A DNA stretch of 22,981 bases. It comes from Eledone cirrhosa (taxonomy: Eukaryota). Positions 1 through 13,288 of the stretch are shown piece by piece. The stretch covers positions 1-22,981 of the forward strand of contig CAXHJY010000745.1 in the NCBI GenBank assembly GCA_964016885.1, in the 5' to 3' direction. The notes beneath the pieces were generated by a model. It made no database searches. It was not told the origin of the DNA and worked only from the letters and a program-made list of their open reading frames with translations. Numbering within the stretch: position 1 is the stretch's first letter; each line of letters begins with the position of its first letter. The position numbers were made by a program, and so were the translations under genes.

Positions 1-618
1 TGTCTGTGTGTTTACATACAGAATAGCTGGGCCGCTCACTGTAAAGCGACCAGTGAAAGACTTGGTACACCTACATATGTATACGTGTGTGTATTCATAT
101 ACACACTAGTATTTCAGTATGCATATGTAGATGTACATTTTTAACTTAATTGTTTAAGCGTCAGTCATACAAAAGTGAGTTACAAACGAAACAAAATTTA
201 ATTTCGTTTCGTTATTTGTTTTTATCGTCTCCGCTGAACCGGTGCGTACTCACACTCTATGCAGATTAGTCTGCCCACTACTAATTTTCATAGAAAAAGC
301 ATATAATGATATGTGCTTTTACAATTCTCCAGAGGGGCCGGTAGATAGGTAAATATTGCTGATGAGTTGTAACAACAACGAAACTAGTTCAATATTCCTT
401 GTCTGGCTTTCTGGAGAATAGGGGGAAGGTGTTCCCCCAAAAACCAGTATGACTCTAAAAACCGGTTTGTCTGTGTGTTTACATACAGAATAGCTGGGCC
501 GCTCACTGTAAAGCGACCAGTGAAAGACTTGGTACACCTACATATGTATACGTGTGTGTATTCATATACACACTAGTATTTCAGTATGCATATGTAGATG
601 TACATTTTTAACTTAATT
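1..618 (+). mobile_element. 467-bp tandem repeat carrying a type I hammerhead ribozyme (candidate non-LTR retrozyme); 1.3 units visible, probably continuing upstream of the window
   Basis: 1-151 is identical to 468-618 (period 467). The second copy breaks off into (TA)n at 619. The unit contains a hammerhead at 347-399 and many hairpins with G-U pairs on the + strand. Confidence 0.8.
347..399 (+). ncRNA. Type I hammerhead ribozyme (HHR1)
   Basis: Stem I AATATTG(352-358)/CAATATT(390-396), extended by AGG/CCT across a TA(A) bulge. Core CTGATGA 359-365. Stem II GTTGT/ACAAC with AACA loop. GAAA 380-383. Minimal stem III inside the palindrome AACTAGTT (382-389). Predicted cleavage after GUU at 389. 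Confidence 0.88.
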
Positions 619-2948
619 ATATATATAATGTATATATATATATATATAATATATATATATATATATATATAATGTATATATATATATATATATATATATA
701 TATATAATGTATATATATATATATATATAATGTATATATATATATATATATAATGTATATATATATATATATATAATGTATATATATATATATATATATA
801 ATGTATATATATATATATATATAATATATATATATATATATATATATATATATATAATGTATATATATATATATATATAATGTATATATATATATATATA
901 TATATATAATGTATATATATATATATATAATGTATATATATATATATATAATGTATATATATATATATATATATATATATATAATGTATATATATATATA
1001 TATATATATAATGTATATATATATATATATAATGTATATATATATATATATATATATAATGTATATATATATATATATATATATAATGTATATATATATA
1101 TATATATATATATATATAATGTATATATATATATATATATATATATATAATGTATATATATATATATATATATATATATATATATATATATATATATATA
1201 AATATAATGTATATATATAAATATAATGTATATATATATATAAATATATATATATATATAAATATAATGTATATATATATATAAATATATATATATATAT
1301 ATAAATATATATATATATATATAATGTTTATATATATATAATGTATATATATATATATAATGTATATATATATATAATGTATATATATATATATAATGTA
1401 TATATATATATATATATATATATATATATATAATGTATATATATATATATATATATATATATATAATTTATATATATATATAATTTATATATATATATAT
1501 AATGTATATATAAATATATATATATAATGTATATATATATATATATATATATATATATATAATGTATATATATATATATATATATATATATATATATAAT
1601 GTATATATATATATATATATATATATATATAATTTATATATATATATAATTTATATATATATATATAATGTATATATAAATATATATATATAATGTATAT
1701 ATATATATATATATATATATATATATATATATAATGTATATATATATATATATATATATATATAATGTATATATATATATATATATATAAAATGTATATA
1801 TATATATATATATATAAAATGTATATGTATATATATATATATAATATATATATATATATATATATAATATATATATATATATATATATATATATATATAT
1901 AATGTATATATATGTATATATATATATATATATATATATATATATAATGTATATATATATATATATATATAAATATATATATATATATATATAAATATAA
2001 TGTATATATATATATAAATATATATATATATATATAAATATATATATATATATATATATATATAATGTATATATATATATAATATATATATATATATAAT
2101 GTATATATATATATATATATATATATAATGTATATATATATATAATATATATATATATATAATGTATATATATATATATAATGTATATATATATATATAT
2201 ATATAATGTATATATATATATAATATATATATATATATAATGTATATATATATATATATATATAATGTATATATATATATAATATATATATATATATAAT
2301 GTATATATATATATATATATATAATGTATATATATATATAATATATATATATATATAATGTATATATATATATAATGTATATATATATATAATGTATATA
2401 TATATATATATAATATATATATATATATAATGTATATATATATATAATGTATATATATATATAATGTATATATATATATATATATATATATATAATGTAT
2501 ATATATATATAATGTATATATATATATAATGTATATATATATATATATATATAATGTATATATATATATAATGTATATATATATATATATATATATATAT
2601 ATAATGTATATATATATATATATATATATAATGTATATATATATATATATATATAATGTATATATATATATATATATATAATGTATATATATATATATAT
2701 ATATAATGTATATATATATATATATATATAATGTATATATATATATATATATATATATATATATATAATGTATATATATATATATATAATGTATATATAT
2801 ATATATATATATATATATATATATAATGTATATATATATATATATATATAATGTATATATATATATATATATATATAATGTATATATATATATATATATA
2901 TATAATGTATATATATATATATATATATATAATGTATATATATATATA
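619..2948. repeat. Interrupted microsatellite, mostly (TA)n-ATG units
   Basis: About 2.3 kb of TA dinucleotide punctuated by AATG, with occasional AAAT/AATTT variants. Confidence 0.97.
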
Positions 2949-3282
2949 TTTTTCGGTTTTTCATTCATTGCCAAAGAACGTCTCTATGCACCACCTAAGA
3001 GAACATTAGTCTACGACCTCTTTTATACCTAAACGTGGTTCTATCTTTGCGCGTAATTGTTTTTCATCGCTCCTTTTAATGACGTATATTCGTTTTTTCC
3101 CGTTCTGTGCCAGCGAACGTTTCCACGAACCAAAGTATCGTCTTCCTGTCTTCCTCCGGTTGTAACGTTTTTTGAAATATCCAGTTCTGCGCTTACAGAT
3201 TGACTTTGTTAGTTTCAGAAGATCCCGTTAAGGGTGAAAGCAGCGATTCTTTGCTTAAACTTTAATCTGTTATTTTAATAAA
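2949..3282 (+). mobile_element. Possible 3'-terminal fragment of a Penelope-like or ribozyme-bearing element wedged between two TA arrays
   Basis: 330-bp unique island ending in a hammerhead-like fold plus AATAAA (3278-3283), then (TA)n. GAACGTCTCTAT near 2976 weakly resembles the end of the Penelope ORF near 11928 (GAACGTTCTCTAT). Confidence 0.45.
3195..3270 (+). ncRNA. Type I hammerhead-like motif with variant core (HHR2)
   Basis: Stem I AGTTT(3211-3215)/AAACT(3257-3261), extended by ACAGATTGA(3195-3203)/TTAATCTGT(3262-3270). Core CAGAAGA 3216-3222 (U4->A). Stem II CCC/GGG closed by a U-U mismatch. GAAA 3236-3239. Stem III AGCA/TGCT. Predicted cleavage after CUU at 3256. Confidence 0.62.
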
Positions 3283-6200
3283 TATATATATATGTATATA
3301 TATATATATATATATATATATATATATGTATATATATGTATATATATATATATATATGTATATATATGTATATATATATATATATGTATATATATGTATA
3401 TATATATATATATATGTATATATATATATATATATGTATATATATATATATATATGTATATATATATATATATATATATATATGTATATATATATATATA
3501 TATGTATATATATATATATATGTATATATATATATATATATGTATATATATATATATATATATATGTATATATATATATATATATATATATGTATATATA
3601 TATATGTGTATATATATATATATATATATGTATATATATATGTATATATATATATATATATATATATGTATATATGTATATATATATGTATATATGTATA
3701 TATATATATATATACGTATATATATGTATATATATATATATATGTATATATATATATATATGTATATATATATATATGTATATATATGTATATATATATG
3801 TATATATATATATATATGTATATATATATATATATATATGTATATATATATATATATATATATATGTATATATATATGTATATATATGTATATATATATA
3901 TATATATATATGTATATATATATATATATATGTATATATATATGTATATATATATATATGTATATATATATATATGTATATATATGTATATATATGTATA
4001 TATATATATATATGTATATATATGTATATATATATATATATGTATATATATGTATATATATATATGTATATATATGTATATATATATATATATATGTATA
4101 TATATATATATATATGTATATATATGTATATATATATATGTATATATATATATATATATGTATATATATGTATATATATATATATATATATGTATATATA
4201 TATGTATATATATGTATATATATATATATGTATATATATATATATGTATATATATATATATGTATATATATGTATATATATATATATATATATATATATG
4301 TATATATATGTATATATATATATATATATATGTATATATATGTATATATATATATATATGTATATATATGTATATATATATATATATATGTATATATATG
4401 TATATATATATATATATATATATATATATATACATATATATACATATATATATATATATATACATATATACATATATATATATACATATATACATATATA
4501 TACATATATACATATATATACACATATATATATATGTATATATATATATATATATACATATATATACATATATATATATACATATATATATATACATATA
4601 TATACATATATATATATATATATATATCTCTATACATATATATATATATCTATATATCTATATATATATATGTATATATATGTGTATATATATATATACA
4701 TATATACATATATCTATCTATATATATATATATATATATGTGTATATATATATATATATATGTGTGTGTGTGTATATATATATATATATATGTGTGTGTA
4801 TATATATATATATATATATATGTGTATATATATATATATATATATATATGTGTATATATATATATATTTATATATATGTGTATATATATATATATATATA
4901 TATATATACATATGTGTGTGTATATATATATATACATATGTGTGTGTATATATATATACATATATATATATATATATATATATATACATATGTGTGTGTA
5001 TATATATATATACATATGTGTGTATATATATATATATACATATATATATATACACACATATATATATACACATATATATATACACATATATATATATACA
5101 TATATATATATACATATATATATACACACATATATATATACACACATATATATATACACACATATATATATACACACATATATATATACACACATATATA
5201 TACACATATATATATACACATATATATATACACATATATATATACACATATATATATACATATATATATATACACATATATATATATATATACATATATA
5301 TATATACACATATATATATATACACACATATATATATATATACACATATATATATATACACATATATATATATACACATATATATATATACACATATATA
5401 TATACACATATATATACACATATATATGTACATACACATATATATATATATATATATACACATATATATATATACACATATATATATATATACACATATA
5501 TATATATATACACATATATATATATATACACATATATATATATATATACACATATATATATATACATATATATATATATACACATATATATATATACATA
5601 TATATATATATACATATATATATACATATATATATATATACACATATATATACATATATATACACATATATATATACATATATATATATATACACATATA
5701 TATACATATATATACACATATATATACATATATATACACATATATATACATATATATATATATATATACACATATATATATATATACATATATATATATA
5801 CATATATATATACACATATATCTATATACACATATATATATATACATATATATATATACACACACATATATATATATATACACACATATATATATATATA
5901 CACATATATATATATATATACACACATATATATATATATACACACATATATATATATATATACACACATATATATATATATATACACACATATATATATA
6001 TATATACACACATATATATATATATATACACATATATATATATATATATATATATATATATATATATATACACACACACATATATATATATATACACCTA
6101 TATATATATATACACATATATATATACACACGCCTATATATATATACACACGCATATATATATATATACACGCATATATATTTATATACACACACATATA

Positions 6201-6480
6201 TTTATATACACACACACACATATATATATATACACACACACACATATATATATATATATATACAGACATACATATATATATATACACACATACATATATA
6301 TATATATATATACAGACATACATATATATATATACACACATACATATATATATATATATATACACATACATATATATATATATATACACATACATATATA
6401 TATATATACACATACATATATATATATATACACATACATATATACACACACATATATATATATATATATATATATATATA
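3283..6480. repeat. Compound interrupted (TA)n microsatellite: TG-interrupted, then CA/CACA-interrupted domains
   Basis: About 3.2 kb. (TA)nTG to ~4430, a mixed zone ~4430-5030, then (TA)nCA/CACA to 6480. Confidence 0.97.
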
Positions 6481-12828: not shown

Positions 12829-12998
12829 TGTATATGTATATACATATATGTATATATATATGTATATGTATATATATATGTATATATATATGTATATATA
12901 TATGTATATATATATGTATATATATATGTATATATATATATATATATATATATATATATGTATATATATATATATGTATATATATGTATATATATATA
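12829..12998. repeat. (TA)nTG microsatellite
   Basis: Directly visible; includes several 12-bp TGTATATATATA units. Confidence 0.95.
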
Positions 12999-13199
12999 TT
13001 TGTTTAGATTTAGGTTAGTTGCTTTGGACTATATTTGTAATATGGTTCTTAATGTTATCTACATCCTTAGTTATTCTTATTATATATTTTTATTTTTATT
13101 TTTATTATCATATATTTTTGCAAGACTTTAGTGTATGTACACTCCATATTCTTCGGAGTTTCCGGCTTGTATCTGCCGATATTACTTCTTGTTGTTTTG

Positions 13200-13244
13200 A
13201 TTGCCCTGATGAGTCCTTAATAGGACGAAACATTGTCGGCTAAT
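13200..13244 (+). ncRNA. Minimal type I hammerhead ribozyme, canonical core (HHR5)
   Basis: GCC CTGATGA(13206-13212) GTCCT taat AGGAC GAAA(13227-13230) C att GTC(13235-13237) GGC, followed by AATAAA at 13242-13247. Confidence 0.88.
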
Positions 13245-13288
13245 AAAAACTTTTGATGTATTAAAGGATTCTTTGTTTTACTCTCTTA

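Follow-up and report, generated by a model that had tools for sequence, protein, structure and literature searches.

Hammerhead ribozymes (HHRs) of Penelope-like elements (PLEs) at TA repeats are already known from the literature. The closest described systems belong to the Hydra clade (PMC8557442); the supplement of that paper lists Hydra-1_Obim of Octopus, which carries an HHR and prefers (TA)n. Here, we describe an entire unplaced contig of 22,981 nt (CAXHJY010000745.1; the window) from the 3.0-Gb genome of Eledone cirrhosa, together with loci fetched from that genome. The HHRs of the window lie in the 3' ends of several PLE families and in one non-coding repeat, family A, which likely travels with the PLEs. 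Like the Hydra clade of PMC8557442, the PLEs described here have one open reading frame (ORF) that includes a C-terminal endonuclease (EN+), a 3' HHR, a (TA)n target, inverted and 5'-truncated copies, and a tail at one end. Judged by their sequences, they appear to belong to a kind already described; their ribozymes are variants, and they show an insertion footprint, here quantified, that we did not find in the portions of the literature covered (the comparisons below likewise refer to the covered portions of each paper).

Several other systems offer useful comparisons. The protein of the Poseidon element PAc of Anolis (PMC11167929), a predicted dimer, cuts and extends both strands of an AT-rich target and starts reverse transcription at two internal sites that define the tail, much as proposed below; HHR cleavage is unneeded in vitro there, and HHR mutants are tolerated. 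PAc belongs to another clade, however, and its start sites fall within the start of the ORF, whereas those described here (in families B and E) lie upstream of the ATG. Non-long terminal repeat (non-LTR) retrozymes (PMC7229834; bioRxiv 10.64898/2026.07.22.740005) resemble family A in their non-coding tandem units, their type I HHR, and the proposal of a PLE as mobiliser. Minimal and U3-A8 PLE hammerheads (PMC4209133; PMC3088659) likewise share a palindromic helix III suited to dimers and a known U10.1-U11.1 mismatch, and the U3-A8 covariation is natural and active. Two questions are named as open in this literature: the tandem and inverted structures of PLEs with their microsatellite bias (PMC8557442), and the mobiliser of animal retrozymes (PMC7229834). 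In the genome of E. cirrhosa, young families retain intact ORFs, the start sites can be given exactly, a hairpin is a candidate for a cis-acting element, and a passenger leaves the same footprint; both questions thereby become directly testable with one purified protein.

Five type I HHR cores occur in the window, at 359 (+, CUGAUGA), 3216 (+, CAGAAGA), 9347 (-, UUGAAAA), 10300 (+, UUGAAAA) and 13206 (+, CUGAUGA), with predicted cuts after 389, 3256, 9309, 10338 and 13237, respectively. All five fit a type I hammerhead descriptor with scores of at least 11, each in a repeated family, while equal-scoring matches numbered eight in total over 100 dinucleotide shuffles of the TA-masked window (0.08 per shuffle). 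Below the gathering threshold, Rfam reports HH9 at 341-412 (38.6 bits) and Hammerhead_1 at 13200-13244, 9303-9353 and 10295-10344, with no match to the 3216 motif among the matches listed. The z-scores from folding the whole motifs, -0.6 to -2.1, are weak, and we place no weight on them. The initial annotation of this contig had listed the same five hammerheads and assigned them, correctly, to four families, although the motifs at 9347 and 10300 turn out to be the two arms of one head-to-head insertion. It had also remarked on AATAAA close behind four of the motifs, which is borne out at +3 to +20 nt from the predicted cut; none follows the 389 site. Counting family E (below), AATAAA stands at 3277, 10342, 12673 and 13242 in families B, C, E and D, and overlaps helix I in three of these. 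Predicted cleavage in B, C, D and E would split the ORF from AATAAA and from both start sites.

The ribozymes differ considerably in form. That of family A (341-412, +) has a minimal palindromic helix III and a long interrupted helix I. In family B (3195-3270, +) the core is of U4A type, with a U10.1-U11.1 mismatch and a helix III of 5 bp. Both arms of family C (9300-9356, -, and 10291-10347, +) carry U3-A8 cores, and the motif of family D (13200-13244, +) is canonical. A sixth HHR, in family E (12554-12682, +), has its core at 12563, a helix II of 87 nt, GAAA at 12657 and a predicted cut after 12668; helix I is mismatched at 12670 in this copy and perfect in 24 of 25 other copies, where helix II measures 88-91 nt. 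The features required of a type I hammerhead (C3/G8 or U3/A8, G5, A6, A9, GAAA, a UH site and three helices) are all present in families A, C, D and E, and in B all but U4. Are the unusual cores simply decayed? U4A is kept in 35/35 B copies (10 variants) and in 3/3 B copies with intact ORFs, and U3-A8 occurs in all 14 listed variants of C, so that these cores are family traits rather than decay of the window copies. Single-copy motifs without conserved pairing would have undone the proposal; the motifs are instead repeated and their cores conserved family-wide. Four DNA searches each gave 1,254-2,056 first-look candidates, and among the 40 scored from each the top identity was 94-100%.

How representative is the window? 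An unbiased sample of 59 evenly spaced 10-kb stretches (590 kb) holds 35 HHR matches, a few of them probably false, against 0-4 in shuffles, which extrapolates to a rough genome total of about 1.5-1.8 x 10^5 motifs. The density of the window is high yet not unique, since one of the 59 stretches also carries five matches. HHR motifs from the pooled fetched loci fall into 46 clusters, many of them singletons, and dozens of families in one genome is itself a departure from the Hydra clade of PMC8557442. Helix II of about 79-97 nt recurs in further families of the unbiased sample. The Hydra HHRs of File S2 of that paper are all CUGANGA with a short helix II, in contrast to the U4A, U3-A8 and long-helix II forms seen here, and neither a family-wide U4A core nor a helix II of about 90 nt was found in the covered parts of PMC4209133 and PMC3088659 or elsewhere in the literature covered. 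This suggests that HHR surveys miss PLE ribozymes with a long helix II.

The coding capacity of the elements points to their identity. Within the window, family B (2950-3282, +) and family D (13000-13289, +) are 5'-truncated 3' ends of Hydra-type PLEs, each with TA on both sides and the short type of end (see below). Family C (9257-10497) is one head-to-head insertion, with a short arm at 9257-9355 (-), a long arm at 9369-10497 (+), and TA on both sides. Family E (10981-12717, +) is a 5'-truncated Hydra-type PLE with a short repeat inserted at 12106-12266; its ORF remnant, which ends at 11990, covers the thumb of the reverse transcriptase (RT), a CxCx5C linker and GIY-YIG. A Penelope GIY-YIG ORF had indeed been noted nearby, but it belongs to this fifth family, whose own HHR was missed earlier. 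Also missed were two insertions without HHRs. One is a head-to-head mini insertion of family B at 9117-9226, consisting of a reversed long tail (hairpin at 9163-9208, -) and the last ~17 nt of a short arm. The other, at 10508-10968, is a head-to-head mini insertion of family F, truncated 3' of its HHR and containing an abundant short repeat at ~10531-10718; the family F HHR is found in longer copies (L243, L244 and L130).

Following the motif flanks outward to full-length ORFs, as had been suggested, leads in families B, C, D and E to RT plus GIY-YIG ORFs upstream, with inter-family identities of 32-62%. Single intact ORFs, with RT followed by C-terminal GIY-YIG, are found in all three fetched copies of B, at 709 aa, and of E, at 760 aa. 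Among 150 scored B copies, ~33 are open over 707-717 aa, and E has several frames of 778-784 aa. The C and D ORFs are known as frameshifted pieces only, in the same order. The community of autonomous and non-autonomous ribozyme elements that had been proposed for this genome accordingly consists of the PLEs B, C, D and E, with intact ORFs in B and E, and repeat A. The RT motifs RW(K/R) and DKT read RWK and DKT in E, RWR (2/3 copies) and DKT (3/3) in B, and RWR and DKT in D; those of C were read by eye from the DNA. All four families have the CxCx5C linker, no CCHH between GIY and YIG, and CxxC plus CxH around the E and N residues. The fetched copies of B and E (three each) add YRDD and carry the distal CxxC and CxH, except for one B copy that lacks CxxC. 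These are the marks of the Hydra clade, including Hydra-1_Obim, as given in PMC8557442, and together with (TA)n insertion (135/145 ends of B-E) they suggest by motif comparison that B, C, D and E are Hydra-clade PLEs. The putative HHR near the 3' end is canonical in D and variant in B (U4A), C (U3-A8) and E (long helix II). Units here reach 5.3 kb (family C), against under 3 kb in the published clade. An assignment to Neptune/Nematis or Naiad was rejected, there being no CX2-5CxxC linker with CCHH and, for Naiad, no N-terminal endonuclease. Pfam names none of these RTs and gives only a weak GIY-YIG match (E 0.0012), and the 120 homologs listed are all unnamed or hypothetical. The long 3' region of family C (9555-10050) is poor in CA, TG, AC and GT; mutation resembling repeat-induced point mutation was rejected for it, with indices near 1 and AC and GT low as well. 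Another type of Penelope-like ORF with RT and GIY-YIG, marked by cysteines that lie between GIY and YIG, occurs at two further loci (L127:7903-9998 and L140:5401-9998).

Element ends in the window abut TA arrays at 618, 3283, 9256 and 13289, as claimed in the initial annotation; its wider statement that every element runs into (TA)n holds for these four junctions but not for the 10300 arm, which, past a 107-nt tail, reaches a TA run of just 10 bp. Across the fetched loci, 155 of 166 de-duplicated family ends run into TA, 90 at a short site and 65 at a long site; 11 end at neither. Not counted here are one further end that a locus edge cuts off and 47 internal units of A. Six of the 11 non-TA ends read through into the ORF of the next unit and are therefore not termini. 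The test set beforehand, enrichment beyond background, gives a clear answer in the unbiased sample, where (TA)5 lies within 250 nt downstream of 29/34 non-edge HHR matches against a background of 16.3%.

Every family has a pair of fixed 3' ends, 65-111 nt apart, with TA directly after either. The published value for PLE tails is 30-40 nt (PMC8557442), and a tail at one end only has been described qualitatively (PMC8557442; PMC3846280). Head-to-head insertions combine one short and one long end in 37/38 mutually nearest inverted pairs (A 8/8, B 10/10, C 9/10, D 5/5 and E 5/5; p 1.4e-10 against 0.5), which likely shows how the elements are copied; two fixed ends with such a pair count were not found in the literature covered. 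The arms of one insertion differ by 1.25%, compared to 2.09% between insertions, and are closer than average in 28/33 pairs (5/38 were skipped for short overlap). Arm junctions overlap or leave a gap of up to 21 nt in 25/26 resolved pairs. Among these 26 pairs, the long-tailed arm extends further 5' in 14 and the short arm in 12, in 10 of the latter by more than 50 nt; this comparison drops 11/37 pairs, those of E being unresolved because the reference contained an inversion, and the sorting of 5' ends is noisy and, for E, unreliable.

These data bear on an alternative that keeps the elements and the target and derives the inverted structure from self-priming or fold-back, perhaps on an antisense template, with the endonuclease trimming one end to give the short and long pair. 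Fold-back has been proposed for rotifer Penelope elements (PMC3846280), the tail has been attributed to endonuclease resolution (PMC8557442), and fold-back likewise predicts that the arms are alike. Simple fold-back of a long-site cDNA, however, predicts that the tailed arm is always the longer, and the finding that either arm may reach further 5' argues against it; the antisense-template version is compatible with the arm-reach result. The Poseidon tail, moreover, matches two RT start sites (PMC11167929). We regard fold-back as improbable, without dismissing it lightly.

If two start sites are used, what positions them? A candidate is a bulged hairpin made up of an RYUC/GARY stem, with a UH bulge on its 3' side, and an upper helix. 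Its start lies 2-12 nt past the short site; in family C of the window it occupies 10398-10419 (+), at the start of the 107-nt tail. It is present at the short site in 9/15 families under a strict descriptor and in 11/15 with a mismatched first pair allowed, compared to 0.13% and 0.38% of random windows, and it recurs after the long site in B, C and E, out of four families readable there. Four of six pairs change on both sides (G-C/A-U, C-G/U-A). In the unbiased sample, 46/101 hairpin matches fall within 120 nt upstream of TA, against 14%, and these include families outside the set used for the definition. The hairpin could be an RNA element that binds protein, as favoured below, or else could serve at the DNA level as a signal for an endonuclease or a promoter. 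No such hairpin was found in the literature covered, and the covered parts of the Poseidon paper report neither a repeated hairpin nor a pair count. An abundant further family, to which no HHR has been linked, ends 48 nt after such a hairpin at (TA)n (L150, L156, L162, L170, L185, L191, L193 and L198).

Family A occupies 1-617 (+) of the window as 1.3 tandem 467-bp units, cut by the contig start and running with a short-type end into (TA)n. Its longest stop-to-stop frame is 72 aa, and its HHR is found in 52/52 units, identical in 51. Arrays reach 13 units or more, one of them alternating 467- and 480-bp units. Units within one array differ by 0-4 per 467 nt, compared to 9 between arrays; at locus L135, 13 units over both arms differ by an average of just 0.15 bases. 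This homogeneity is consistent with one small and possibly circular template being copied over and over, with local homogenisation as the rival account. A non-coding tandem repeat with a type I HHR per unit fits, on sequence criteria, a putative non-LTR retrozyme. Compared to the retrozymes of PMC7229834 and the bioRxiv report, the link to PLEs is here the insertion footprint rather than co-occurrence or phylogeny of the pseudo-LTR (pLTR); no pLTR homology was found for A, which is known from DNA alone. A was also detected, as a small share, in DNA reads of two other organisms. Another retrozyme-like family, which has the minimal helix III of A and a 484-bp spacing, is seen at L003 (2272 and 2756), L015, L144 and L147.

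Could A instead be a satellite, or the passenger of another retroelement, spread by local amplification or by a long interspersed nuclear element (LINE) and not by a PLE protein? A lacks the hairpin and any sequence match to PLE ends, PMC7229834 leaves LINEs possible as mobiliser, and a fragment that we take to be an RTE-like LINE (13889-14440, -) also ends at (TA)n, as it does in the flank of L009; HHR elements are thus not alone in adjoining TA. Against this, A shares the PLE footprint, with two fixed ends 72 nt apart, 20/21 ends at TA, and short plus long ends in 8/8 inverted arrays, and we think it rather unlikely that A spreads independently of the PLEs.

The likely explanation for the whole is that HHRs reside in the 3' terminal repeats of Hydra-motif PLEs and in the 467-bp repeat, and that target-primed reverse transcription places these elements in (TA)n that is already present. 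The GIY-YIG endonuclease would nick a TA run on its two strands, with cDNA synthesis primed from each nick at one of the two start sites inside a single RNA. A hairpin to which one subunit of a dimeric protein binds would likely set the position of each site. Both cDNAs would then end independently of one another and be joined through microhomology. Retrozyme A would be copied in trans by the PLE protein, probably from circular or multimeric RNA. With both start sites located 3' of the predicted cut, and an intact HHR retained in the copies, the template would be uncut at the 3' repeat, where cleavage is probably dispensable. The success of the U4A family, whose core is known from its sequence, agrees with this view. 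What PMC3088659 gives on this position is limited to U4C, reported there as weak yet tolerated. A more ambitious joint reading, which we put forward tentatively, is that the duplicated bulged hairpin sets the two RT start sites, one per target strand, with a dimeric RT making both arms from one RNA; that the same machine copies a circle of the 467-nt retrozyme, insertion footprints then identifying PLEs as the mobiliser of animal retrozymes; and that the prolific U4A family shows cleavage to be dispensable in vivo.

Several points count against these proposals. One inverted pair is long plus long, in 5/33 pairs the arms are no closer than average, and gene conversion can likewise make arms alike. 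The family copies analysed are the best-scoring, youngest matches from the fetched loci, taken without random sampling. As to the hairpin, the descriptor was defined after viewing these tails, the covariation alignment holds only rows chosen for the motif, and matches in the unbiased sample are only mildly commoner than in shuffles (101 vs 60-82); it was not found in families A, P and M (the short site of M being misassigned), and K fails the descriptor. Finally, no sequence link was found between A and any PLE end tested.

Do the elements find TA arrays or make them? TA-rich array fills ~36% of the window, including 618-2949 (2.3 kb, TA-rich) and 3283-6480 (3.2 kb, TA/CA-rich), compared to 4.8-6.6% of the 59 sampled stretches; the giant arrays are therefore atypical of the genome. 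Outside the window, the median TA flank (n=149) measures 54 bp, and a length of 500 bp is reached by 10 flanks, a few long ones being cut by locus edges. Were insertion to take place at any TA base at random, 95 bp and 15% would be expected; equal choice of arrays predicts 23 bp. Summed across inverted pairs, the median is 124 bp (n=39) against a length-weighted null of 192 bp (p 0.056). At both end sites, (TA)n is missing from the read-through copies of A, B, C and E; together with the short flanks, this leaves seeding of arrays unsupported. The simplest reading is that the elements insert into existing TA arrays, favouring longer ones, and the arrays may grow later. That elements seed or expand giant TA arrays, as the initial annotation inferred, for example through a telomerase-related RT adding (TA)n, is thus very unlikely: three window elements do adjoin arrays of 0.6-3.2 kb and flanks exceed the array-weighted null, but they do not exceed the length-weighted one, TA lies on both sides of inverted insertions, on the 5' side of many truncated ones and upstream ((TA)5) of 17/34 non-edge HHR matches in the unbiased sample, where ~30 HHR ends face 617 arrays, and the window itself has a giant array without an HHR. 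This third array, at 20953-22981, follows a different repeat that has no HHR match.

Other features of the window can be mentioned briefly. An uninterrupted 481-aa frame at 7114-8559 (+) matches glycosyltransferase family 92 (Pfam E 6e-31), a host gene between arrays. A GC-richer fragment at 15511-15870, with no Pfam match, resembles the C-terminus of another retroelement protein. Rfam miRNA matches in the window were rejected as repeat artefacts, and an isolated near-perfect 40-bp inverted repeat at 18502-18593 attracts matches to miRNA models. The abundant short repeat within families F and E, which we take to resemble a short interspersed nuclear element (SINE), recurs at 16650-16980 and ~19900-20070; it is extremely abundant and dominates read depth, as well as the reads and contigs over 6500-12830, and contigs break at TA runs.

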